Source of the DNA: Barthelona sp. PCE
Taxonomy: Eukaryota
Assembly (NCBI GenBank): GCA_040285745.1
Contig: JAUFOR010000002.1
Span: 1,736,001-1,800,000, forward strand
Direction: 5' to 3'
Length of the DNA: 64,000 nucleotides
Below the pieces are notes generated by a model, which was given only the letters and a program-made list of their open reading frames with translations, made no database searches and was not told the origin of the DNA. Below are positions 41,981 to 57,015 of the stretch, piece by piece (positions within the stretch are counted from its first letter, which is position 1; the number at the start of each line of letters is the position of its first letter). A program made the position numbers and the translations under genes.

Positions 41981-43483
41981 CTATCCCAAAATGTTACATG
42001 TTGCAAACTTAGAATTACTAGTGTTTCTAAAGAGCATATGAAGGACACCGTTAGGGGGACCAAGGAAAGCAATAGCTGCATCAATTAAAAGATAAAACGC
42101 CAGAGATTTGTTCATGACAGTGTGGTTTTTACGTGGAATGTACATCTGGTTCATGATCTTATATCGGTCAATCTTAAACTCAACCCAATTGATGAAGAAT
42201 GCAAACAAAGAAAGAGCAGGAGCAAAGATAATAGCAGAGTATACAATGAACTGTCTGTATATAACCTCTAAAAATTCATCAGCGAGATCAAGTGGTTTGC
42301 CGTCAGATCCCTCCTTACATTTTGCAAGAACAGGTGCCAACAATTCAAGACCATTAAATACTACTAGATCGGTAATCATAAGCGTAGCAATCTGTTTAGC
42401 AATATCGTTGTAATAACAATCACCATTGTAAACAGCATATTTAGCGATATACATTGCTACAACTGTTGATACTTTGTAAGCAAATAATTTAAAAGTATTA
42501 TGAACTTGAAGACCAGTGTATGTCTTATGCTTCTCGAAAAGGGTTAACTTCCTGGTAAATTTCTTACCAAGGAAGTTAACAGTTGAAATGATACCTGAAA
42601 GAACAAAAGAACCAACTGTTGAACCCTGGAAGTAATCTGTTAATTTAAATGACACAATACCGACCAAGAAAATGAGACATGATAATGTGATATAAGCAAC
42701 GATAATTCTGAAGAAACGCTGAATAAAACCAACAGAACGATTTTCTTTGATTTCATCATAAATAGTTCCTTCCAGACTTTCAGATTTCATATCCTTTAAC
42801 TTGACTTTCATTGATCTAAAATAAAGGAAGGGGAATGAAAACCACATAATTGCATTAATAAGAGTAGTTAAACGCCAAATTCCAGCAACACTGGATCCAT
42901 AATGTCCAATTGAGAAGTGACTGACGACACCGTCAACTTCAGCACTAGAATAACCGGGGATGATGTTGATCAACGCTAAAATAAATGAGAGAATATTGGT
43001 AACAGCAATGAAGCGTTCAAATTCAAGCAAAAGTCTGATACCTGTTCCAGCCCATTCACCAATATCCTTAAGAGAAGCATCTTTGTTGAGTTTTGTGTGC
43101 ATAGGACTGTCCTGAGGTAAGCTACCATCAGTGCTGGTATAGTATGGAACACCGCTTTCAGAATATTTGATTTGCATGTTTTGAGGAAGAGTAAACTGAA
43201 CCTGTTGAATGGTTGGTGCCCAAAAATTGAAATGGTGAACCGGTTGACCGTAGGGAACTCCGTTAGCAGCAGGAACGGGGACAGCCATTGGCTGAGGTTG
43301 AACTTGCGCAGGCGGGAATTGCTGCATAGGTTGAGGTTGAGGTTGACCGCCGTAGTTAACACCTTGGTTTGGATTGTATCCCATTGCATAAGGATTATAG
43401 CCAGCATTGTTTGGGACGTTTGGGTTATAGCCACCATTGTTGTGGGGATTGTAACCACCGCCACCGTTTGGTTGCGAGTACAT
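41981..43483 (-). CDS. Transmembrane channel-like (TMC/OSCA-TMEM16 superfamily) protein
   Basis: IGEWAGTGIRLLLEFERFIAVTNILSF (cf. TMC FGSSVxSYFxFLRW), LTLFEKHKT, DLADEFLEVIYRQFIVYSAIIFAP; N-terminal YNP/PQ low-complexity tail. Confidence 0.7.
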   Translation of the reverse strand: MYSQPNGGGGYNPHNNGGYNPNVPNNAGYNPYAMGYNPNQGVNYGGQPQPQPMQQFPPAQVQPQPMAVPVPAANGVPYGQPVHHFNFWAPTIQQVQFTLPQNMQIKYSESGVPYYTSTDGSLPQDSPMHTKLNKDASLKDIGEWAGTGIRLLLEFERFIAVTNILSFILALINIIPGYSSAEVDGVVSHFSIGHYGSSVAGIWRLTTLINAIMWFSFPFLYFRSMKVKLKDMKSESLEGTIYDEIKENRSVGFIQRFFRIIVAYITLSCLIFLVGIVSFKLTDYFQGSTVGSFVLSGIISTVNFLGKKFTRKLTLFEKHKTYTGLQVHNTFKLFAYKVSTVVAMYIAKYAVYNGDCYYNDIAKQIATLMITDLVVFNGLELLAPVLAKCKEGSDGKPLDLADEFLEVIYRQFIVYSAIIFAPALSLFAFFINWVEFKIDRYKIMNQMYIPRKNHTVMNKSLAFYLLIDAAIAFLGPPNGVLHMLFRNTSNSKFATCNILG

Positions 43484-43749
43484 GTTTAAAAGGAATGAAA
43501 AGGAAGGTAAAAGTAATTCGAAATCGGTTTCAGTTCAGTTAAATTTTTTAGGGATTTTAATTCCAAAAAGGTGCTTAATACTGATTTATAAAGAAGTTTT
43601 AAACCTTTTAAACTACCATGCAACGGTACAAAGTTGATTCTCATATTTCTGATCTTTCGTTTTTGAGTGTAAATACTTCTTAAACGTACTCCTCATGTAC
43701 ATTGATGCATTTCCGAAAACAGAATAAGGATCCAAAACCTTGAATTTCA

Positions 43750-43948
43750 TCGTAGGAGGTTGTAAATTTACTTCGGAGTTAGACACTTGTACGGGAGTTG
43801 CGAGCTCCCTCGAGTGCTGTGCTTGCACTGAGAATTGTTCTAGAGCCCTTTTTTTTAAAATAAAAGGGGAGAAAGAAATGATGTAAGTACTCACAGAGTA
43901 CAAGAGGGAAGACCGCGTGTCTACTCCTCAGTAGATTTACTCCTACGA
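43750..43948 (+). ncRNA. Candidate structured ncRNA or fold-back element of unknown class
   Basis: About 30 bp of long-range pairing (43750-43786 with 43917-43948) enclosing several hairpins; G-U pairs favour the + strand. Confidence 0.45.
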
Positions 43949-44635
43949 AATAGCGTGTTATTCACAAGCGTGCCTAATATTGAAACAAAATTCTCATTTT
44001 GCTATAAAAAGCTAAATTGAATAGATTTTGATCAAATTGCTCCTGTAGTCGCCTTTAATATGTATCACAAACATAGATATGAACATGCACTGAAAAATTC
44101 TATGTCTTTAAATCATTTCGAAAAAATATAATGACTTCAGTGAGGCTTCAACATGATTCTTTAAAACTATTGTGTGACTTAAAATTGGTAAATATCACAC
44201 AAAAAGTTTTGAAAAAAAAAAAACTGCCTATCCATTCAGAACCAAATCCATACTTACACGATACCGAATTCAGCCACAGCTCCGCACTGGCTCACAAAAA
44301 ACTTGATCATAGCTCCAGGATAGAACCTGCGGATATCCATATTTCATTTCAGTATTTCAGATAATCCAAAACACGTGAGACACTTTGGTTTAAACATATT
44401 TTCCGCAGTTTATACCGTATATTCTGCTTTGACGTGGAAAATCATGCACTTATGTTGGTTGATGTTATCACATGAGTAAAATTTGGTTGTAACAGCTCTC
44501 CAAAAGGAGTATGAGCCTCTGTGACCACTAGATAAATGGTAGTCATGACTCGTCATCTTGGTTTACCTTTCTTAACTCTTACCTTACTTCACTGTTGACT
44601 ATTTCAGCTTTTTATAAAGTTCTCTCATCGTCAAA

Positions 44636-45862
44636 ATGTCCCACCAAACAACAGACTACAGCAACGAAGCAGTTATTAAGTTTTTTCAAGATTCTGGCAT
44701 CACATGGATCAGTTACGTGTGCATCACATTAGAGGGAAACCTCCATCAGATGAGCGAGACCATTGAATCTCTCCCAGGAATCCTCAACGGAGGCCTCGGA
44801 GTTGATGGTTCATCCCTCGGATTCACCCCTACTCACGAATCTGATGTTTTACTTAAGCCCATCAACGAATCGCGTTGTATTGTAAGCTATGGACCTGAGC
44901 TTGAAACTGGTTTCATTCTTTGTAAGGTTGTCAAGTGCAACGGCGAACCTTGTGGAACTGATCCCCTTACCATTCTTGATGAGCAGGTCAAACGTTGTCG
45001 CCAGCTTGGCTATGAGTCAACTATGTTCTCAGAGCTGGAGTTTTTCCTCCTCGATCCCGAGACCGGACGTCCTGTCGATAACTCTGGTTACATGGACATT
45101 CCTCCTGCTGACACAACCATGCTTTACCGTCGCCGCCTTGCCAAGCGCTGCATTGATGCCAACATCAACGTAAAGCGTCTTCACGCTGAAGTCGCTGAGG
45201 CTCAAGCTGAATGCGAGTTCAACCTCATGCCTTCCCTTAAGAATGCCAACGATACATCTCTTGCTATGCTTCTTTCCAGAATCCTCGCCAAGGAAATGGG
45301 TTACATTATTGACTACGATCCCAAGCCACTCAACGACGTAAACGGCTCTGGTCTCCACATGCACGTGCAATTGCGCGATCTCACTACGAACGAGAACGCC
45401 ATGAGCGATGAGGACTCTAAGTACAACCTCGGAGAAGTAGGTCGTTATTTTATGGGCGGTCTTTGCAAGTATGCTCGCGAGATCTGCGCTGTCTTTGGTC
45501 GTTCTGATTCCACTTTCAAGCGTCTTGAGCCTGGTTATGAGGCCCCCACCGATATTTCCTGGGGTGCTATGAACCGTACTTGTCTTATCCGCCTTCCCCT
45601 AACCTCCCCCGACAAGGTACGTGTTGAGTTCCGTGGAGGTGATGCTTCTGGCTCACCCCACCTTCTTGCTTGTGCTATTCTTGCTGCTGGTCTCAGTGGT
45701 GTAGAGAACAAGATCGCCCCTCCCAAGGAGGCAGAGGCAGTTGGTTCACTCCCCGTCAGCGTTGCTGAGTGCAAGACGATTCTTGAGACTAGTGACTGGC
45801 TCGAAGATATTTTCGGTCGTGAGGCTCTTGATTGGCTCGCTAACCCCCCTAAACAACATTAA
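44636..45862 (+). CDS. glnA: Glutamine synthetase, prokaryotic GSI-type
   Basis: VDGSS, ESDVLLKP, ELEFFL, HAEVAEAQAE, PKPLNDVNGSGLHMH, KRLEPGYEAP, NRTCLIRLP, RVEFRGGD. Confidence 0.9.
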   Translation: MSHQTTDYSNEAVIKFFQDSGITWISYVCITLEGNLHQMSETIESLPGILNGGLGVDGSSLGFTPTHESDVLLKPINESRCIVSYGPELETGFILCKVVKCNGEPCGTDPLTILDEQVKRCRQLGYESTMFSELEFFLLDPETGRPVDNSGYMDIPPADTTMLYRRRLAKRCIDANINVKRLHAEVAEAQAECEFNLMPSLKNANDTSLAMLLSRILAKEMGYIIDYDPKPLNDVNGSGLHMHVQLRDLTTNENAMSDEDSKYNLGEVGRYFMGGLCKYAREICAVFGRSDSTFKRLEPGYEAPTDISWGAMNRTCLIRLPLTSPDKVRVEFRGGDASGSPHLLACAILAAGLSGVENKIAPPKEAEAVGSLPVSVAECKTILETSDWLEDIFGREALDWLANPPKQH

Positions 45863-45913: not shown

Positions 45914-48900
45914 TTATTCAGTATTTTCCTCACTTTCTTCACTGCAAGGCTTTTGATTAATATCAATGTCACTCTCAATGATGATGTCATGGACATCATT
46001 ACAAACTTCCAACTCTTCTTCTTCAACGCTGTCTTCAAATCTAAGATCACATACGTTCTGAAATTTAACCTTTAAATATCGCTTTCTGCGTTTCCTACTG
46101 CCTGTACGACGCGTTATCGGTGTACTGGGTCGCGGCTGTGCAACGAATGGAAGCATTGAAAATGATTGTACTGATGAATAAATGCGATTTAATCCTCCTC
46201 TCTTTTTTTTCTTCCTGCAAAAAATAACCACAAGAGCAAAGAAAAATATTAACAAGAATAGCATAAAGAAACTGAAAAGAGAGAGAGATGTGCATTGCGT
46301 TCCACTTCGCCACACACTACATAAACATGTGCCACCACGAGTACATTCGCCATTACAAGAAAGACATGATTGTAGAACACAAAACGATGACATAGCTCCA
46401 TTTGAGCACATGCACTGGGTTTCCCCAACACATTCGCCATCGCCACACCCTTCGACACAGCGACTCGTACCACAGTGGGTGCCGTTGTATCCTCCTGCAC
46501 ATTCACAAATGTATGATGGGTTGCAAAATCCCTTACCGTAACATGCATAGGGGCATGTGGTGTTCACTGTTACGTCAACAGCAACACCGAATGAAGAAGG
46601 GGTACTTATGGTAATGACATGGGTCCCACTGATGTTGTTAACAGTGTAAGCTATGCCCCCTTCATAATTAGTTATGTTAAAAAGACTGGAGTCGACATTC
46701 ATCAAACGATGATGTTCGTTACTGGACTCCAACAACAACGTCACATGACGTGGTTCGGGGAGAACCAGAGTCAGCTCAAATGCCGTCGATTCCAAGCCGT
46801 CAATAGATGCGTGTGCAGGAAGAGGTTGATTGAGAAGCAGGTGAAATTGGGTTGACTCAGTGATTGCTACACGGTTACAAACTTGACCTTCGAAGCCAGG
46901 ATCGCAATTACACACCCCATCACTGCTACGAACTCCAACGCCAGAACAGGACGACTCTGATGATCCACACGCAGGATCGTAGAAGCCTTCTTGGCAAACA
47001 CACTCCTGATTTGAACATGTTCCGTGGATGCAGTCAGGCTTGCACGTTTCGGTCTCACATGCATCACCGATGTAGGGCGCATCACAATGACAAACTCCGT
47101 TCCAGCACGAACCTCTTGAATTACATGAACCTGGGCACATCTTCTTCGAGCAGTCATCCTTGGTGTAGTCGGGGAAGCATACGCACGTACCGTTGTGACA
47201 TCCCCCAAACACGCAAGAGTCACAGGTCATGTTCATGCAGTCGGATGCAGTCCAACCAACGTCACAAACACACTCTGCAAATGAAAGATCATCTGAGTGA
47301 GTACAAGTGCCATGTAGATCGCATCCGTCCTCACAGCGCATAACAGAACAGTTGCTAACAACCTCAAACAAGCGGTCACAGATACAAGTTCCATTATTAC
47401 AGGTTCCATGACCAGAACAATCCTGAGGGCACTTTTTCGAATCACAAAGAACTCCTTCCCAACCTTCTGAACACTCACACTGACCACTACCACCTAAGCC
47501 CGCATCACATATACCGTGCAGGCAGTCACTACATACATACTCGCAGTCAGGACCGTAGTATCCTGGTGAGCATAGATTGCAATCCGGAAGCGCATAGTTA
47601 CCAGTACAATGTTCGCAGTGCCCATTACCATCAACTCCAAAGCTGGGGACTCCATTGGTCATGTTGCAAGTGACAGTTTGTGTGCAATCACTCCCGAAAC
47701 GCGTCGGGATGCAGTCTTCGCAGTATGGGACCGCGAACCCTGACCGACACATACATCTACCGTTACCTCCTAGCCCATCCAGGCACACGCCGTTGTTGCA
47801 ATCTGGACATTCTGCACAAGATGTACCATAAAAGTTATGGTCGCATATCACACAGTCGCCAGTCTGCGAGGTTGCCCATCCGCTGTCGCAGTGTTGACAG
47901 TCGTCTCCGTGTCTATTGATATCACAAACATCGCAAAGCGTTCCATTCCAGTTAGTGTCACATGTGCAACTACCATCCCCTGAAAGGGTCTCGCTGCATG
48001 TTCCATGCTCGCAAACAGGACACATGTTACATGATTGTCCGAAATAACCGGTCTTGCACTTGTCACATAACAATCCGTCCCATCCTTCGCTACAGGAAAC
48101 GCATTGCCCATTACCACTGGGCCCTGTGCTCGGCACTCCGTTAACACACGTCGAGGTACGGTCACAAAGGGGACCGAAGAATAATCCATTGCAAGAAAGG
48201 CACTCTCCTGTTCCCAAAACATCGTGACTGGGGGTACCGTTCTCACAAAGCACGGGCTGGTTACAGTTTGCTCCGTAGTACGAGTCAGAAGTGCAGAATA
48301 GGCACGAACCGTCACTTGTTTCATTTTTATCCGGTACACCGTTCACACACGTCACAGTTTTATCGCATGAATCTCCGAAATGATCATCATCGCAGTGGCA
48401 TACAGAGCGAATACACTCGCCATTCCCATTGCAATCGTCCTCGCACAGATCAAAAAATGTGATTGCCGCATCCAGTGTGTTGCTCAACAGACTGCCATGC
48501 GCCACACTAATAGAAGCTCTTCCCGGCGGAACATTGACGATGGTCACTCTCAAATTGCTGGAAGAAACGCAGGTTGCAGAGTATGGATAGAACGTCCCAT
48601 TCAGCGACACCCTTGCAAGTTCAATGCCACACAGATATGAACCATAGACGTCCAGGACAACACCACTAGTGAAAGCATCAGTGGGTGAAACGCTGGTTAT
48701 ATTAGGTAGATTTGTTCGAACAACTGTTCTAATGGTAGTATTTTGAAAAAACGCAACTTCATGAAGTTTACCATTATCGATAATCAAATCTCCCACAGCA
48801 TCACATGTTCTATCATGGGAGATAATACCCGTACTATATGGTGAAAAAACGTTGTCGAAAAACGGCAATAACACCAATGATCCATTTATGTCGAGTCCTT

Positions 48901-51900
48901 GACCGTATTTGTGACCATATACCCATGCAAGACTGCACCACTCATCTATAACGGTGCAGTCATCACCAACATGAACTGCTGGAAGGAGAGTGCTATTGTC
49001 TGTGAACAACACAAGTCCGTCTCTAACTGAACTGAAGCCAGTAATGTTACTCAGAGAATAGCTTGTGAAAATACAGTTCTCGGGGATAACAAGCACAGTG
49101 TCATTAGAAATAATAAAAGTATGAGTTGAATTCCCAGCTACACCCAGTACATCCTGCATTGATGACAAAACAAGAGCGCAGTATCTGTGTCTGATCGTAC
49201 CGTTTGAATAAACAATCGCAAAGCGATCGGCATCGAAATATAGCACTTCTTCTGCAACCTGTAAGACAATACCGCTGGTGTCAACCAAAATATATTCATT
49301 CTTGTTGCAGTCAAAAAGCACTGCACTATCACGAAGAACACGATGAGGAACGAGAAACCGACCTGGCACGACAACACGAGATCCATTTATGTATTCAACA
49401 ACAATACTACCCGTTTCGATACCTTCACCAAAGTAAACATCGAATTGACTTGTGGATAAAATGGTGTCGTTCAGTAACGTGACAGATACCCCATTTCTCT
49501 GATAATACACAAAGCGGTGCGGTACTGTGGTGGTTGCACGAGAAGAAGCGTTGAAGACTGTGTCTATGTGATCAAAAGATAGCATTATGTGATTCACACA
49601 ATGAAGACGAGTACAGACACGCAGCTTCATATTATATCCATAAGCCGGGCCCATGCTGCACTTTACCGTTGTTTCGTTGAATGATACAACTGTGCATGGC
49701 CAATGACCAACATCAACGCTAACATTAGGACTGACACTCGGTGGAGGGAATTTTTCAGCTTGAATCACCAATATGTTTGTTTGTACACTACTTAAGGTCA
49801 ACGGATGAATCGCTCCCAGAGTGAAATCCAGAGTTCTTATCTCACCCAGGAAATGTTCCTGACCACATACATATAGAACCGCCTGATACACGCCATACAC
49901 TGACGGAACGCGAAACACCACATGCGTTACATTGATAAAAACAATTTCACAATCCACACTTCCGTTCAAAACTACAGTTGGCTCGAAGTACTGCGGCATG
50001 TTCTGCACTTCAACAGTAACAATTTCACCCCATGGTGATATAACTGTGGGCTCCATCCTAACAACAGATATGTTGTCATAGCGATGGTGATGCTCGATCG
50101 AATACTCCGGCCATTCAACACGAAGTACTGCATGTGCACAACCCTCTTTGGAGTTCACACTTATCTCAGTGCCAGACACGCTTTCTGCTGCAATAGGGAT
50201 GCCGTTCCAACGAATGAGAGGCTGGTCGTCATTATTGAGCGCAAAATTATGGCCTTCCATCAATATGTTGCAATTTCCATCAACTGAATTGCACTCTTCA
50301 GTTACACTCGTGATAATGGGTTCTGGCCATCCTGCCAGGAGCAGTGAATGTGCTGAACCCACGCCAGCCAAAACAAATGGTACATTCTTTACGATTTGGG
50401 TAGGGGACTCGATCAACGAGTCTGCCTTGGAGAAGCCAAGGCCGCATGAACCGCTATCGTCACGGCCCCAACAATACGCTGCACCGTTAATCGATACCGC
50501 AATTGCGTGGTCCTTAAATACACTTACTGAAGTTATAGCAGCGTCAAAGTTTAACCACACGGGACAGGAAGACGTAGATTCAAGCAAGTCTGTGTTGTCT
50601 CCAAATGCTTGAACTGTACCGTTTTTATATACGAAGAACCCAATATCCTCACCGGTTGAAATCGCTGACACGTTTGTGGCGACCTTGATAGCAGATAGTT
50701 GATCTGTGTTGGAGCAATCTCCCAGTAGACCACCCTCTCCTTTTGCATAAACGTCTCCATTATCAAGAAGAACAAGCATAAAACTACCCAACATTTTGAG
50801 AGATACAATCACATTAGAGTCTGATGAGTAAACAAGAACTGGTGTGTCAAAAGTTGAATACGAACCGAAGATACCGTGATTGGAAGCCCCTGTTCCGTAC
50901 ACGTGAGTTTCATTTGCAATCAGTGTGGCTTCTGCGCTTGCAGCTGCCATAGTTGCATTTATGACTGAAACTAATGACAACTCCTCCGGGTTGCACAAAT
51001 CACTCGTGTGGGGGGCAAGCTTCATATCATCGAACGCGCCAGATCCGTATGCGCCAGTTGCATTGATAAAAACACCGTGCTTCTGCCCCAGTGATACTGA
51101 ATCGTATGAGACACTGTAGGCAACGGGTGAAAGTATATACTTATCACAGTTCTGCCCAATGTTTCCGTAGTAGTTGCGTCCCCATGCATAAACGCTGTCT
51201 GAGCACACAGCAACACATTCACTCGATCCGACTTCAATATCAAGAACACGCTTGTCATATATCGAACTGATGGGCTGTGGTGTTGTTTGAGATGCAACAC
51301 CGTCAAGTCCAAGTTGCCCGTATATTCCATTTCCGAATGAGTAGATGCGGGTATCATAATAACGTAGTCCAGCAGTATGAGTTACTATTTGTCCATGAAC
51401 TGTTACAGTAATATCGCACGAACCCACGTTTTGAGGAAGACTCGTGATCTCCGTACTGTTGTGCAATACGGTCTGGAGAGGAACGTTTGATCCGCAAATC
51501 TCAACAGACACAACGGTTATGTTCGTGCCAAAGTTGGATCCAAACACAATTACTGGTGTTGTTCCGAACTGAGGTGCAATATTGGGGCGTAGCATGTTAA
51601 TCACTGGCTTATTGGCACCAATAAGATCAGAACCTGTTGTTTGCAACTCGCAAACCGAAAGCATGATGGTAACGTTTGTCGGGTTACCTATCATTTGGTT
51701 AAAATCACACAAAAGAGATGTATGACTATCACTTTGACACGATGCGTTGCCTTTGACGCCAAGATTGGTCTCAAACGTTAACGAAACATTGTTTGTAGCG
51801 CCTAAATTGGAACCAGTGAATACGACATGACCACCCTCTGTCGAAATCAAACGAGGAGTCGCCCCTGACAGTGTTGGATGCAAGTATTCAACTAAAAATG

Positions 51901-54900
51901 AAGTTTGGTAATACTCACAGGAAATTATACACAGAGAAACAATCTTTGAGTGACATCCTTCAGCCATTTCAAAAAAAACAGACTTATGAGTGTGATTGAC
52001 CAGCTGTAATACAACTCCGTCCGCAATCACGCTGACGTTCGCTGAGGCTGGACCAATATTCGACCCAAAGGCACCAATAACAAAACCGGCCGTACTCGAC
52101 CTATTAGAGGTTGTAATTTCGGCATCAGCATATCGAAGAGTACCACATGTGAATGATACATGCCCACGTATCGCCCTGCACTCCCATTCACCGACACCCT
52201 CAGGTACATCCAGCGAAAATTGAGCGTGATTGAAAACAGTAACATTCTGACACGTCACGTTCTCGATGCATACTAATATTTCTGTTCCTGTGGGACCGAA
52301 GTTGTGCCCAAAGTAAGTCACTGTCTCACCGGATGTAGCTGGTGAGTGTGACACTGTGAAAAACTGGGGGGATGCTCTTCCAATCACAAAGACTGAAGAG
52401 GTACGACCGCATACCGTCAGAACAACCGAAACATTGTCGATACCCTCTGGCACCTCAATCTTAACCGATGTCTGATCAATATAATAAACAGGAAAGACCG
52501 CTTCATCAGTTGAAGCCACTAATTCACACAAGCCTGATCCAAACGAGCTACCAACCACTGTTACATTAGTAACACGTGTGTTTGACTCAGAGTGATCTGT
52601 AATGATTGGTCCGCTTCGATCAACTGAGAAAGTGCTGCACGTGTAGACGCATACAGTCACGTTATCCATGGTATCACCCTCGGAAACATCAATTTCAATC
52701 ACAGTGCCATTAATACTGTTCACAGTTGATACTACACCGTCGATGTAAACTTCAGTAATGGAAGCAATAGGGCTTCCGAAGTTATCTCCCCAAACAATGA
52801 GCGTACCACCACTTGTTGAAACACTACGTACTCTGGAGATGGTGGGGCCACTGTATGGTATGGATGAATTGACACATAGAGAACCAACACACACCTTCAA
52901 GTCTGTATACGTTGCGTTGTTACATATCTGCAACTCTAGCTCCGACTCATCCCTGTGCAGAGTTCCAGCCAATGGAAAACACCCTGCAAAGTTACATAAG
53001 TGTGTTGTGATGACTGTGCCATCGATACCAAAGTTGGAAATGTTCACAATTGCTGTTGAGCAACTCGAAAGAGAGACGTTCCCGTTCCATTCTATCTCAG
53101 GAGATTCGTATTCCTGAGTAACTGAACCATTTGTGCTGCCTGAAAAAGGTGAAATGGTATACGTTGAGTCGCCAGGTGGAATAAACGCAGTTACAGCATC
53201 TTGACATGCCAAAGCGCTGCTAAAAACATAACAGTGCGTTGCATTACACCTCATTGGTGAATCACTGTGAACGAAACTGTGTAACGCATTGACTTCTTCA
53301 CTGTCTACTGAGGCGATAGGTAAAAGATTAGTTCTATCTCTGATGATATAGGGATAAAAACACTGCTCAATGCTCTTTGTTGTCAGTTTAACGTCGCCAA
53401 TGAAGAGTGACTGATTAAATATTCCAAGACCAGTTACCGAAACGTTTGCGCCAGAAGTGGGTGACATTTCAACTGCAATTATGTGAGGAACGCTATCAAG
53501 CATTGTACAAAACTCGCCCTTCCTACCGTATGCGCATTCACAAGTGCCATTATGACACATGCCACCATTGCAATCATACAAACATGTCAGCAAACTGCAA
53601 CTGCCACCGTGATAACCATCAAAACACTCACATGTGCCATTGTTGCATGTACCGTGCCTTGAACAATCGTTTTCACATGTCAAAAGCTCACATGCTGTAC
53701 CGTTGAAACCATCATTACACTGACATGCGCTGTCCAGGCAAACACCACGGTTAGAGCAGTTGTTCGGACAAGGGACATCGAAATCTAAGGTGAACCCTGT
53801 GTCGAACATAATACCACCACGAATCAACGCCAATGTAGCATTGAAAGAGACTGTGAAATTGTTGAGCAGCATATCGGTGATCTGAACATGGACAACATTA
53901 GCACTTAAGGCGTAACCGTTAATAATTACACCATCCAAAGACAAGGTAATATTTGATCCCGTTGCGGCCAAATCTTTTCCTTTGAGTTCGATCACCTGTG
54001 AATAACCTGGTATAAGCTCAATTTCGGTCTGATTAATCGAATCAAACTGCGGGTTCCGCCTTTTAACGGAAACAGTTTGGGATTGACCATCAAAACTTAC
54101 AGTAAATGACGAATTATGGTTGCTCGGTGGAAGAGAGACGGTAAAAATGTGGGAAGACCAGTCATCACCGTGTATACTCGCTTCACTGATAATAGATGTG
54201 TTGTGCACCATCGAAGGAACACATCTCTCCTCTAACAAACACAGTTCACCAGTTCGAACACCTATCGATGTTGTGCAATTACGCCAATACTCGGTGTAAC
54301 CAATCTCATATCGTGTAGCGTAGCTGTCCATTGACAGTCCACCACCGGAATACATCTCTGTGAATATCTCGCTTTGAGTATCAATTAATGTACCGTTCTC
54401 AAACACCTGACAGACTGTTGTATTATCAACCAAGACGTGTATTGCACAGACAGTTTCGTTGAAACAATGCTCACCAACATGCTCTATCGCGGTGATCGTA
54501 TGAGTGGAGTTTGTTGTACTACCGCCGGAAAACCCGTACAACTGGGACATCACGTCTGATGACATGATTACGTGTGTGTTTGCGTATTCGGTACCACACT
54601 CCGTCACTATCTCATATAGATATGTGGTGACGTTCACCATAGAAGGATGTGCTGTTTGGAATGAGAGCTCTGTGTCTTTGTCAATCGTCAAATTGGATAT
54701 CTGTGGCATGTTCCACCCTTCAACAGTGGTGTTTCCGCCATCTACGCCAACAGTAACCGAATCTACAATAAAAAGCGGCGGAGCTGGGACGCTTACATTT
54801 TTGTGCGCCACATTGTGCCCCTCACTTGTTACGATGGATACTATACCACCAGCATACAACATGAATGATATTAATTCTGACTCAGTGCACGCACTCTCCA

Positions 54901-56914
54901 ATGGAATACTAACATTAATCGACACTGAAGGAATAACCACTCCGTCAAAATAAACAGAATAAGTCCAGTCACCTGTGTTTGAAACATTGGCCGTACAGTT
55001 GCTGCCATGAACGTCTCCATTCCACCACATATCCTCGATGTACGGTAAGGTGGTAATGTTGCAAAATGTACCGCTGAACTCAGAGCTACATTCACATATG
55101 CCTGTTGTTGTATTACACTGGCCGTTCCCACTACACATCAGCCCGCCATCTGACGGACATGTGAGCAGCTCGCATGCATCACCAAACCTGTCATCATTAC
55201 ACACACAAGTGCCGTTGACAAGACAATCACCACCATCGTTACAATCATCAATACATTCCTTGTTTTGGCAATTGATACCATAATACATATCAGGGCACTC
55301 ACATATACCAACAGTCGAGTTACATATAGCACCGTTCTCACACACTGGGCACTGACATGATCCATCAGTGCACAACGCTGTACAGTTCTCGTGACAGCTC
55401 CTATTAAAGTAAACTGACATCTCGCTAACCGAAAGGAACTCACCTGTTGTGGAATACGAAACTTTGGGACGAAGAGTTGTACCCTCAAGATCGACTGTGC
55501 TATTAATGAGAACAACCATCTGTGTGTCTGAAACCACGTCAACAAAGATGTTATCAATGATCAGTGTCTCGTTCTCATTATAAAGAGAGAAAACAAAATT
55601 AAAGTGGTCAAGTTTTGAACCTGTTCCTAATGGAGCAAATGAAGTTCCATTGAAAACAAGGTTGCATTCCGAGGAAGGCAAGCATTGCAAATCATCACCG
55701 CTAAAAAGAGACGCGGGCGCTACCATCGTCTGGTTATACATCTGTACAACACGACTTGCGCGGAAATTTCCTGTGTGAAAATAGTTGGGGATAAATGGTG
55801 CCCTCAAAACTGTGAGAGTATCATCCCATGTTGTGCCATCTCCCCACGATGCTTGTCTATTCTGACCCCAGAAATAAAGCGTTCCATCATCCATCACATA
55901 GCAGCCGGCCAACGACAAACCCATACATGGACGGTGGATAACTCTTGGCGACCACACTTTTGTTGGGGTGGGTCCACATGTAGACCACGAATATACGCCT
56001 ATTATCTTGAAACCAACACCAGAAACGTATAACTCATTTGATGTGGAAAAAAATCCAATTATCTGTGAAGTCAGCGACATATCTTTGATCAGAGATCCGT
56101 CGGATACGCCGTACGGTCTGAACTCGTCGATGTAGGAAGAGCGACCAATGAGATCATCCGTATACGATCCGAGGGAGTCTCCTCCACATGAGTAAGCTAA
56201 TCCGTTACGGTCAACAGCGTATGATGTCCATACATTGGCATACACCCGCTCGAAGAACACGCCATCGATTGATGGGTAGTCTAACATTGTTGGAGTGAAA
56301 CACTCGGTTGTGTTTGGCTGACCAAGTTTCAGGTCGTCTGATTTTCCCCATGACCAGAGACGCCCATCGACGTCAACCACGAACGCTGCTCGCCCGCTGG
56401 TGCTCATGTCGGTTACCCTAACAGTTGAATTTGGATGAGAGAAAGAAACTAGTGTTGGGATGAAGACTGCGTTCACAGTCGTCTCGTTCATCCATATATA
56501 GTCACCGGTGGCGTAAAGCAGCCCATCTTCGGTAAGGAAGAAGGTGCTATGGTATCCTGCAACGATCTTCTTCAAAGGAACACCGCGGAAAAAATGTAAC
56601 TCTTCTGGATACCCTGTGTAATTTGTGTGGTTTAGTCCTAATTGTCCAACTGTGTTGTACCCTGCGACGTAAACAGAGTTGTTCGTTAACTGGACAACAA
56701 AATGACCTCCACCGACAGCAAATGTTGCGATTGGAAGGTTTTCAAAAAACGGGTGTTTTTCAGGGAATGCATAGTGTGTGACGTTCGAATCCAGGCCCAA
56801 CTGGCCAATATCGTTATTTCCAAACACATAAAACCCTAAACCTCCAGGAATAAAAAAATATAGAACAAAAATGACCCATATACATTTTTGGTGCAATAAA
56901 CCCTTACTTTTCAT
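45914..56914 (-). CDS. Giant (3666 aa) type I surface protein: two RCC1/BLIP-II-like propeller blocks, IPT/TIG repeats, tenascin- and laminin-type EGF arrays, TM, short tail
   Basis: Signal peptide; FGNNDIGQLGL and FGNGIYGQLGL RCC1-type repeats; many GxNFG IPT motifs; CxxxCxxxGxCxxGxCxC EGF repeats; TM FSFFMLFLLIFFFALVVIFC followed by RKKKKR. Confidence 0.85.
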   Translation of the reverse strand: MKSKGLLHQKCIWVIFVLYFFIPGGLGFYVFGNNDIGQLGLDSNVTHYAFPEKHPFFENLPIATFAVGGGHFVVQLTNNSVYVAGYNTVGQLGLNHTNYTGYPEELHFFRGVPLKKIVAGYHSTFFLTEDGLLYATGDYIWMNETTVNAVFIPTLVSFSHPNSTVRVTDMSTSGRAAFVVDVDGRLWSWGKSDDLKLGQPNTTECFTPTMLDYPSIDGVFFERVYANVWTSYAVDRNGLAYSCGGDSLGSYTDDLIGRSSYIDEFRPYGVSDGSLIKDMSLTSQIIGFFSTSNELYVSGVGFKIIGVYSWSTCGPTPTKVWSPRVIHRPCMGLSLAGCYVMDDGTLYFWGQNRQASWGDGTTWDDTLTVLRAPFIPNYFHTGNFRASRVVQMYNQTMVAPASLFSGDDLQCLPSSECNLVFNGTSFAPLGTGSKLDHFNFVFSLYNENETLIIDNIFVDVVSDTQMVVLINSTVDLEGTTLRPKVSYSTTGEFLSVSEMSVYFNRSCHENCTALCTDGSCQCPVCENGAICNSTVGICECPDMYYGINCQNKECIDDCNDGGDCLVNGTCVCNDDRFGDACELLTCPSDGGLMCSGNGQCNTTTGICECSSEFSGTFCNITTLPYIEDMWWNGDVHGSNCTANVSNTGDWTYSVYFDGVVIPSVSINVSIPLESACTESELISFMLYAGGIVSIVTSEGHNVAHKNVSVPAPPLFIVDSVTVGVDGGNTTVEGWNMPQISNLTIDKDTELSFQTAHPSMVNVTTYLYEIVTECGTEYANTHVIMSSDVMSQLYGFSGGSTTNSTHTITAIEHVGEHCFNETVCAIHVLVDNTTVCQVFENGTLIDTQSEIFTEMYSGGGLSMDSYATRYEIGYTEYWRNCTTSIGVRTGELCLLEERCVPSMVHNTSIISEASIHGDDWSSHIFTVSLPPSNHNSSFTVSFDGQSQTVSVKRRNPQFDSINQTEIELIPGYSQVIELKGKDLAATGSNITLSLDGVIINGYALSANVVHVQITDMLLNNFTVSFNATLALIRGGIMFDTGFTLDFDVPCPNNCSNRGVCLDSACQCNDGFNGTACELLTCENDCSRHGTCNNGTCECFDGYHGGSCSLLTCLYDCNGGMCHNGTCECAYGRKGEFCTMLDSVPHIIAVEMSPTSGANVSVTGLGIFNQSLFIGDVKLTTKSIEQCFYPYIIRDRTNLLPIASVDSEEVNALHSFVHSDSPMRCNATHCYVFSSALACQDAVTAFIPPGDSTYTISPFSGSTNGSVTQEYESPEIEWNGNVSLSSCSTAIVNISNFGIDGTVITTHLCNFAGCFPLAGTLHRDESELELQICNNATYTDLKVCVGSLCVNSSIPYSGPTISRVRSVSTSGGTLIVWGDNFGSPIASITEVYIDGVVSTVNSINGTVIEIDVSEGDTMDNVTVCVYTCSTFSVDRSGPIITDHSESNTRVTNVTVVGSSFGSGLCELVASTDEAVFPVYYIDQTSVKIEVPEGIDNVSVVLTVCGRTSSVFVIGRASPQFFTVSHSPATSGETVTYFGHNFGPTGTEILVCIENVTCQNVTVFNHAQFSLDVPEGVGEWECRAIRGHVSFTCGTLRYADAEITTSNRSSTAGFVIGAFGSNIGPASANVSVIADGVVLQLVNHTHKSVFFEMAEGCHSKIVSLCIISCEYYQTSFLVEYLHPTLSGATPRLISTEGGHVVFTGSNLGATNNVSLTFETNLGVKGNASCQSDSHTSLLCDFNQMIGNPTNVTIMLSVCELQTTGSDLIGANKPVINMLRPNIAPQFGTTPVIVFGSNFGTNITVVSVEICGSNVPLQTVLHNSTEITSLPQNVGSCDITVTVHGQIVTHTAGLRYYDTRIYSFGNGIYGQLGLDGVASQTTPQPISSIYDKRVLDIEVGSSECVAVCSDSVYAWGRNYYGNIGQNCDKYILSPVAYSVSYDSVSLGQKHGVFINATGAYGSGAFDDMKLAPHTSDLCNPEELSLVSVINATMAAASAEATLIANETHVYGTGASNHGIFGSYSTFDTPVLVYSSDSNVIVSLKMLGSFMLVLLDNGDVYAKGEGGLLGDCSNTDQLSAIKVATNVSAISTGEDIGFFVYKNGTVQAFGDNTDLLESTSSCPVWLNFDAAITSVSVFKDHAIAVSINGAAYCWGRDDSGSCGLGFSKADSLIESPTQIVKNVPFVLAGVGSAHSLLLAGWPEPIITSVTEECNSVDGNCNILMEGHNFALNNDDQPLIRWNGIPIAAESVSGTEISVNSKEGCAHAVLRVEWPEYSIEHHHRYDNISVVRMEPTVISPWGEIVTVEVQNMPQYFEPTVVLNGSVDCEIVFINVTHVVFRVPSVYGVYQAVLYVCGQEHFLGEIRTLDFTLGAIHPLTLSSVQTNILVIQAEKFPPPSVSPNVSVDVGHWPCTVVSFNETTVKCSMGPAYGYNMKLRVCTRLHCVNHIMLSFDHIDTVFNASSRATTTVPHRFVYYQRNGVSVTLLNDTILSTSQFDVYFGEGIETGSIVVEYINGSRVVVPGRFLVPHRVLRDSAVLFDCNKNEYILVDTSGIVLQVAEEVLYFDADRFAIVYSNGTIRHRYCALVLSSMQDVLGVAGNSTHTFIISNDTVLVIPENCIFTSYSLSNITGFSSVRDGLVLFTDNSTLLPAVHVGDDCTVIDEWCSLAWVYGHKYGQGLDINGSLVLLPFFDNVFSPYSTGIISHDRTCDAVGDLIIDNGKLHEVAFFQNTTIRTVVRTNLPNITSVSPTDAFTSGVVLDVYGSYLCGIELARVSLNGTFYPYSATCVSSSNLRVTIVNVPPGRASISVAHGSLLSNTLDAAITFFDLCEDDCNGNGECIRSVCHCDDDHFGDSCDKTVTCVNGVPDKNETSDGSCLFCTSDSYYGANCNQPVLCENGTPSHDVLGTGECLSCNGLFFGPLCDRTSTCVNGVPSTGPSGNGQCVSCSEGWDGLLCDKCKTGYFGQSCNMCPVCEHGTCSETLSGDGSCTCDTNWNGTLCDVCDINRHGDDCQHCDSGWATSQTGDCVICDHNFYGTSCAECPDCNNGVCLDGLGGNGRCMCRSGFAVPYCEDCIPTRFGSDCTQTVTCNMTNGVPSFGVDGNGHCEHCTGNYALPDCNLCSPGYYGPDCEYVCSDCLHGICDAGLGGSGQCECSEGWEGVLCDSKKCPQDCSGHGTCNNGTCICDRLFEVVSNCSVMRCEDGCDLHGTCTHSDDLSFAECVCDVGWTASDCMNMTCDSCVFGGCHNGTCVCFPDYTKDDCSKKMCPGSCNSRGSCWNGVCHCDAPYIGDACETETCKPDCIHGTCSNQECVCQEGFYDPACGSSESSCSGVGVRSSDGVCNCDPGFEGQVCNRVAITESTQFHLLLNQPLPAHASIDGLESTAFELTLVLPEPRHVTLLLESSNEHHRLMNVDSSLFNITNYEGGIAYTVNNISGTHVITISTPSSFGVAVDVTVNTTCPYACYGKGFCNPSYICECAGGYNGTHCGTSRCVEGCGDGECVGETQCMCSNGAMSSFCVLQSCLSCNGECTRGGTCLCSVWRSGTQCTSLSLFSFFMLFLLIFFFALVVIFCRKKKKRGGLNRIYSSVQSFSMLPFVAQPRPSTPITRRTGSRKRRKRYLKVKFQNVCDLRFEDSVEEEELEVCNDVHDIIIESDIDINQKPCSEESEENTE

Positions 56915-57015
56915 TAAATATATAACATTTTATGAGAAAAAATTCATTGTAAATAGGAAAGATAAGTTGTTACAACATAGAACTCCTCCTTCACAAACGT
57001 TGTTCGATTCAAATC

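Follow-up and report, generated by a model that had tools for sequence, protein, structure and literature searches.

A structured intergenic repeat of Barthelona sp. PCE, very probably the solo end of a tyrosine-recombinase retrotransposon

The 64-kb window analysed here (64,000 nucleotides of contig JAUFOR010000002.1 of Barthelona sp. PCE) is gene-dense and eukaryotic, and between two of its divergent host genes lies a strongly folding stretch whose identity is the question of this report. The gap that holds it (43484-44635, 1152 bp) is the longest in the window without open reading frames (ORFs) of at least 100 aa, the runner-up measuring 659 bp, in agreement with the initial annotation, which had singled the gap out as exceptional. 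In positions 43750-43948 that annotation saw a multi-branched RNA-like structure and considered a housekeeping RNA, a new non-coding RNA (ncRNA) or a decayed MITE. The structure is real, and it can be said with high confidence that the stretch is not an ncRNA gene but a solo end-repeat of a recombinase retrotransposon, made of two repeats, A and B, and named here family S1. The features of the locus are as follows.

41981..43483, minus strand: anoctamin/TMC-like host gene, flanking, diverging from the gap, outside the element
43750..43974, minus strand: whole solo A+B unit of family S1, 225 bp; ends common to dispersed copies with unrelated flanks
43849..43974, minus strand: A repeat, 126 nt, with an A8 tract at its end; boundary placed from family E
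43949..43974, minus strand: leader outside the rod, 26 nt, overlooked earlier; from the ends of S1 copies and the fold
43940..43948, minus strand: A site (positions 27-35) complementary to the last 9 nt of the element (43750-43758); from the fold
43887..43901, minus strand: local A hairpin that competes with the A-B rod; seen on folding A by itself
43849..43856, minus strand: A8 tract (T8 on the plus strand), A/B boundary and tip of the rod; from young-copy comparison
43750..43848, minus strand: B repeat, 99 nt, GGG at start; stop-free in the frame of family E's recombinase C-terminal tail
44636..45862, plus strand: glutamine synthetase host gene, flanking, diverging from the gap, outside the element

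The remainder of the gap (43970-44640) is single copy in the genome. No tRNA was found at the locus by ARAGORN, and a bacterial promoter and terminator scan, of a type ill-suited to a eukaryote, gave no matches. Elsewhere in the window, a 3671-aa ORF (45914-56929) carries RCC1, TIG and teneurin-like EGF repeats.

Extent, copies and insertion of the S1 unit

The extent of about 200 nt first given to the structure (43750-43948) was too short, as the unit runs 26 nt further, to 43974. The functional strand is probably the minus strand, not the plus strand as first read; on it, S1 starts with GG and ends with A. Nor is the sequence unique: S1 is a dispersed repeat with 48 matches in the genome (40 of 44 candidates were scored), among them more than 20 near-identical, sharp-ended copies. 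Twenty-two young full-length copies with distinct flanks were examined in detail, a set from which three repeats of one insertion in a tandem array were excluded, as were one split copy and all older ones. With the T/A tract disregarded, 15 of the 22 are identical (the window copy counted), four have one difference, and the remaining three differ from S1 at 3, 11 and 15 positions. The A8 tract is the only part that varies in length among young copies.

Flank comparison revealed no target-site duplication at the 22 young copies, since the flanks overlap by 0 nt in 14 of them, by 1 nt in seven and by 4 nt in one. The genome comparison proposed earlier thus found dispersed copies and no duplications. 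Three copies nested in repeats of known intact form (L012, L014 and L018) have exact, blunt joins, and two other nested insertions are imprecise, with adjacent deletions (L022 and L027). The S1 stretch is thus a young, dispersed, blunt insertion devoid of target-site duplication, like those of the five sister families described below. Older S1 subfamilies are present at about 70-87% identity, and successive subfamilies decay by deletion. Exact S1 motifs had no matches in metagenome contigs.

Two side observations concern the repeat landscape. A tandem repeat of about 7.6 kb, almost without long ORFs, occupies G000:C6:1-50000 (L041, L118, L120 and L121) and carries one S1 insertion in four of its copies, with variable decay. 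At L043:1075-2012, L147, L149 and L150, solo repeats of different families abut in chains with one-sided truncations.

Sister families with full-length parents and the kinship of S1

In families B, C, D, E and G, the short repeats are solo A+B ends of 6-kb tyrosine-recombinase retrotransposons. The parents share the layout A1-gag-RT/RNaseH-YR-B1-A2-B2, with the internal repeats downstream of the tyrosine recombinase (YR). Full elements were recognised at L078-L082 (E), L128 (B), L129 (D), L119/L125/L126 (C) and L123/L124 (G nested in C). Family E, reached via repeats adjoining S1 copies, comprises five loci in which the first 133-134 nt are followed by a 5.6-kb interior, the last 99 nt and then the whole unit; the interior codes for what is presumably gag, followed by an RT/RNase H/tyrosine-recombinase frame of great length. 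Apart from the poly-A tract, five E solos match the A2B2 of the E parents without a difference. Insertion is blunt in all sister families.

The reverse transcriptase (RT) of the sister-family ORFs was identified by Pfam RVT_1, and the RNase H-like D/E/D/D set from motifs rather than from a Pfam match. The recombinase region contains the invariant R, K, HxxR, W and Y, and its structure model has Cre recombinase as best fold match (E 7.7e-4). A PDB sequence search with the recombinase gave no matches, and its profile found one match in a large protein set, a fragment labelled as coming from the same organism. The start of B falls, in all five parents, within a Trp codon of the recombinase tail or directly behind it; the recombinase C-terminus is encoded in the B repeat (L128:2033-2445, L129:2911-3319 and L078:6763-7094); in families B and D, the frame continues through B1 into A2.

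In a tree built without named Ngaro references, the RTs of the five families group together in a single clade (support 0.75), surrounded by non-gypsy RTs of which many come with a methyltransferase. The best match outside the genome is just 28% identical, and a related RT/RNase H is present in a transcriptome-derived protein of another barthelonid. Of 24 RT matches in the genome, 12 belong to the five families, one is telomerase and the other 11, close to contig ends, represent a different type. The second type lies in arrays (L122:4027-8562 and ten other matches), and the telomerase reverse transcriptase-like ORF, with RVT_1 and Telomerase_RBD, is at L135:7125-9866.

S1 resembles family E in several respects. 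Both, with S1 read on the minus strand, have a 5' GG, a 3' A, a poly-A/GGG boundary and a 99-nt B, and the A1 of E ends in a poly-A tract as the A of S1 does. Their local alignment across the A/B boundary has a z of 8.2 (0 of 200 shuffles), and the score of the A halves exceeds that of all 1000 shuffles made. The ungapped B repeats share 37 of 99 positions, a value matched by 133 of 20,000 shuffles; the homology is weak, neighbouring registers giving 32-35 identities and codon positions showing no bias. In the recombinase frame the B of S1 is stop-free and starts with ALEQF, as compared with VLGHF in E; an open frame of 32 codons is not rare, and subfamily S1b keeps the recombinase-tail frame without indels. 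Each of the two families was found inserted in the other, which indicates that S1 and E moved in the same period.

Taken together with this layout, the S1 stretch is very probably a solo A+B of a DIRS-order tyrosine-recombinase retrotransposon with split direct repeats, related to E. It would, in all likelihood, be the A2-B2 piece of an A1-ORFs-B1-A2-B2 element on the minus strand. Identity between solo and A2+B2 tail was demonstrated for family E; for S1 there are the weak homology and the same layout. The full element would have been inserted by recombinase action without duplication, and recombination between A1 and A2 would then have removed the 6-kb middle, leaving A+B; these two steps together are a reasonably likely history for each copy. 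Recombination between repeats has also been proposed as the origin of the solo AB repeats of Cafeteria (PMC8547959, in the part of the account consulted).

Queries with the A and B motifs, with subfamily DNA, with the RT family and with three proteins brought up no parent of S1 in the assembly. The exact matches to the A motif (32 sites) and to the B motif (26 sites) are all known solo or partial copies, and four weak motif hits were rejected as chance or decayed solos. There was neither an A-only S1 copy with a retroelement ORF behind it nor a B-A-B tandem, and S1 ends flanked none of the 24 RT matches in the regions examined. The recombinase profile recovered families B, C, D, E and G alone over the examined loci, and no S1 parent.

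These results bear on the alternative that solo S1 is itself a mobile, non-autonomous, SIRE-like unit, moved in trans by the RT and recombinase of a sister family, with the rod joining its ends. No parent was found for S1 despite at least 22 young copies, whereas five exist for E, and the DIRS-1 RT works in trans (PMC7192593, consulted portions); for SIRE, remnant and mobile states have both been considered (PMC6681497, likewise). Orphan family F is also dispersed and has a 9-copy head-to-tail array with B/A junctions. However, no S1 tandem dimer was found that could offer a B/A junction template, and the B of S1 pairs with the A of S1, not with that of other families. Moreover, the regions examined hold a single parent apiece for B, D and G, so a lost or unassembled S1 parent is plausible. 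Movement in trans is accordingly considered rather unlikely, and the solo remnant of a related full element is the preferred reading. Family F itself is an A+B-like unit of about 240 bp with many unit-plus-partial tandems, its array lying at L046:7103-9765 and L145 (G000:C5:243102-245764); no parent of F was found.

The A-B rod and the pairing of the 3' end

All nine pairings listed in the initial annotation are present at their coordinates, including both G-U pairs. The 199-nt stretch folds at -75.9 kcal/mol on the plus strand (z -6.05) and at -68.9 kcal/mol on the minus strand (z -6.40), values equalled by none of 200 shuffles on either strand, so the folding check suggested earlier came out far beyond shuffles. 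The multi-branched model survived in its outer part: its four outer helices have pairing probabilities of 0.85-1.0 on both strands, but the inner hairpins reach just 0.01-0.33, with the minus-strand T/A hairpin (0.92) as the one exception. A mostly unbranched rod folds best, at -75.9 as against -63.9 and -68.1 for the two conformations first envisaged. Both score worse than the rod, although two states would fit a half that occurs alone (A1) and adjacent to the other half (A2-B2). The local hairpin in A (43887..43901) shows one compensatory A-U to G-C change in three of 15 aligned copies.

The rod joins A to B, through 58 of its 68 pairs in S1 and 60 of 68 in family E, A being an imperfect inverted copy of B in both families. 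In sense orientation, the cognate A-B duplex has z values of -5.3 (S1), -3.4 (S1b), -3.5 (E), -2.1 (B), -1.7 (D), -1.4 (G) and -0.4 (C); the antisense duplex is weaker, save in S1 (-5.1) and G (-2.2). Non-cognate A-B pairs lie near zero, save S1/S1b and one antisense E-C pair. Three adjacent pairs are changed on both sides between S1 subfamilies. Covariation in S1 is modest: its score, inflated by relatedness, was reached by four of 500 shuffles and its two-sided changes by 89 of 500, and RNAalifold gave no consensus on 15 diverged copies. In family E, compensatory changes affect three of the 60 consensus pairs, including one A-B pair, and sense-strand G-U pairs are kept in seven of seven rows at two positions. 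The earlier suggestion that bulges and G-U pairs reflect selection on a single strand therefore receives moderate support, from a small number of compensatory changes and from the preference of related families for the sense strand. The fold was probably selected in the sense RNA of the parent rather than at this locus, and the window copy probably has no host function. The imperfect complementarity between A and B may have arisen for RNA folding alone.

The rod leaves the 26-nt leader outside and places the last bases of the element within A. In S1, seven pairs of the helix between 43940..43948 and 43750-43758 have a probability of at least 0.99, and the terminal one has 0.72. Among helices that contain the final base of the element, the best lies at A position 27 in S1, 25 in S1b, 30 in E, 28 in B, 27 in D and 24 in G. 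Thus, in four of the five parent-bearing families (E, B, D and G), the last bases pair 24-30 nt inside A, with a chance of 0.04-0.06 per family, for a window that was set after the data were seen, in families of which B and D are related and with helices of 4 bp only in D and G. The RNA-ensemble probability of the terminal helix is 0.11 or less in B and D. Family C has neither rod (z -0.4) nor terminal helix, and in orphan family F the second-best end-pairing site is position 26.

This end pairing is read as a replication signal, most likely for fold-back priming of reverse transcription. In sense RNA, B2 would fold onto A and leave a base-paired 3' end beside a single-stranded leader of 23-29 nt, a geometry that would be that of a primer on its template. 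Applied to S1, the tentative proposal is that pairing between B and A brings the RNA 3' end to a site 26 nt inside A, where it would serve as primer for copying the leader by reverse transcription. The primer of DIRS-1 has yet to be established, a 3' hairpin being one suggestion (PMC7192593, in the sections consulted).

The main rival to priming would be a recombinase site at the B/A junction, as the DNA fold closes its helix there. The complementarity would then act in DNA, either as arms at the B/A circle junction or as folded single-stranded cDNA, and not as an RNA primer. The helix is closed exactly at the natural B1/A2 junctions of B and E in the DNA fold, insertion needs no target homology, and the antisense strand of S1 folds well as DNA (z -5.9). 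The DIRS-1 cDNA is also single-stranded (PMC7192593, same sections). On the other side, E, S1b and B fold better as sense-strand RNA, and the G-U pairs of E noted above are kept on that strand. The spacer of 23-29 nt, moreover, far exceeds that of classical recombinase sites, which is 6-8 bp. A role in DNA is therefore regarded as unlikely, and fold-back priming is retained as the tentatively preferred reading.

The readings that leave retrotransposon ends aside fare worse. The decayed MITE of the initial annotation was correct in pointing to mobile DNA, but the copies are young, target-site duplication is absent and, of the two arms of the inverted match, one lies 26 nt internal instead of at the end. 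A non-autonomous rolling-circle element of the Helitron2/Helentron type, whose inverted repeat is asymmetric and whose tail is short, would account for the 5' TC of the plus strand, for an inverted match that stops 26 nt short of the 3' end and for the lack of duplication. Such elements follow insertion rules, either a 3' CTRR with A/T insertion or T/T insertion. S1 has no CTRR end and no A/T or T/T target rule, the flank bases varying freely, and in all characterised sister families the same asymmetry belongs to recombinase-retrotransposon ends, which makes this explanation very improbable.

As for RNA genes, Rfam gave no matches in the window at gathering score and, with E up to 10, five weak matches that all stay clear of 43750-43948, one of them (E 1.7) reaching into the last 19 nt of the unit. 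This agrees with the earlier failure to recognise known RNA cores. SRP, RNase P/MRP, sn/snoRNA, tRNA and ribozymes were set aside for lack of a covariance-model match, and Box C/D, K-turn, SRP and RNase P/MRP motifs, judged by eye, were dropped. A stand-alone ncRNA gene, housekeeping or new, is not supported, in view of the lack of an Rfam match and of more than 20 dispersed, sharp-ended copies inserting into other repeats. Least probable of all is a multi-copy structured ncRNA gene or SINE-like retrocopies, for which the strong fold and the location of all 22 copies outside ORFs of at least 150 aa (0 of 22 overlap one) could speak, and against which stand the missing Rfam family, ends without poly-A tail or duplication, and subfamilies that decay by deletion.

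Relation to known systems and significance

Solo AB repeats are already known, from the Ngaro elements of Cafeteria and from SIRE of VIPER. As in Cafeteria burkhardae (PMC8547959), isolated A+B repeats occur here beside A1-[ORFs]-B1A2B2 elements of about 6 kb with gag, RT/RH and YR. The consulted part of that account describes no A-B complementarity or end pairing; its parents are present, unlike that of S1, and RT/RH and YR form one frame in four of the five families here (B, D, G and some copies of E), unlike there. SIRE, the A2+B2 of VIPER in Trypanosoma cruzi, is short, dispersed and free of target-site duplication like S1, and about twice as long (PMC6681497 and PMC12278014, in part). In VIPER, YR precedes RT/RH (PMC12278014, in part), whereas it lies downstream in all five families here, and VIPER/TATE membership was rejected on this ground.

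DIRS1-like elements share the joining of ends by complementarity, a single-stranded intermediate and a 3' hairpin suggested as primer (PMC7192593 and PMC3266345, consulted parts). They differ in that the repeats here are exact and direct and the inverted match imperfect, with no 3-nt target-matching junction motif and no clear methyltransferase (MT) domain. Since self-comparisons give direct repeats and the flanks hold no common trinucleotide, DIRS1-like membership was discarded. PAT-like elements have split direct repeats as here (PMC4157794, in part), and no significant MT domain was seen here. The 200-230 aa linker between RNase H and recombinase (L082:4962-5600 and equivalents) may be a decayed adenine methyltransferase. 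The sister-family ORFs gave no match to a Dam domain; an MT-like segment is present in 66 of 150 outside proteins retrieved, profile alignment to these 66 segments has a P of 0.36, and a low-confidence linker model places Dam at rank 7 (E 1.1). For a PAT-like kinship, an MT domain after RNase H would be at most a decayed remnant.

In the sister families, A1-ORFs-B1-A2-B2 and the order of RT, RNase H and tyrosine recombinase are Ngaro-like, and the superfamily that fits their layout is Ngaro, whose elements carry no MT domain; the assignment is tentative in view of the possible MT remnant, and is made for these families alone and with an RT tree that holds no named references. Intermediates between split direct and inverted repeats have been described as not observed (PMC4157794, section 26, in the part consulted). 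On sequence grounds, E and S1 are candidates for such intermediates. It is doubtful that all three parts of a joint proposal hold together, namely that the halves, being also inverted copies, are the missing intermediate, that the pairing at 24-30 nt is a self-primer and that solo AB rods move in trans.

What appears new, judged from sequence comparison, is the inverted complementarity between A and B together with the rule of end pairing 24-30 nt into A. No account of either was found in the literature covered, chiefly main texts with subscription journals thinly represented, and no report of recombinase retrotransposons of such type in metamonads, supplements aside. The main text of the barthelonid genome paper (PMC11316075) does not mention retrotransposons, DIRS or recombinase. 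Further related sources, consulted in part, are PMC3783388, PMC9210276 and bioRxiv 10.64898/2026.05.21.726589.

As a candidate ncRNA gene, the S1 stretch is explained away. Its interest lies in the priming and end rebuilding of split-direct-repeat retrotransposons, an unsolved question that the end pairing would address. Pairing of the 3' end with the leader at an equal distance, in families without alignable repeats, lends itself to a specific test with short RNAs. Finally, the five sister families, without close outside relatives, place a diverse and recently active clade of recombinase retrotransposons in a 10-Mb metamonad genome.
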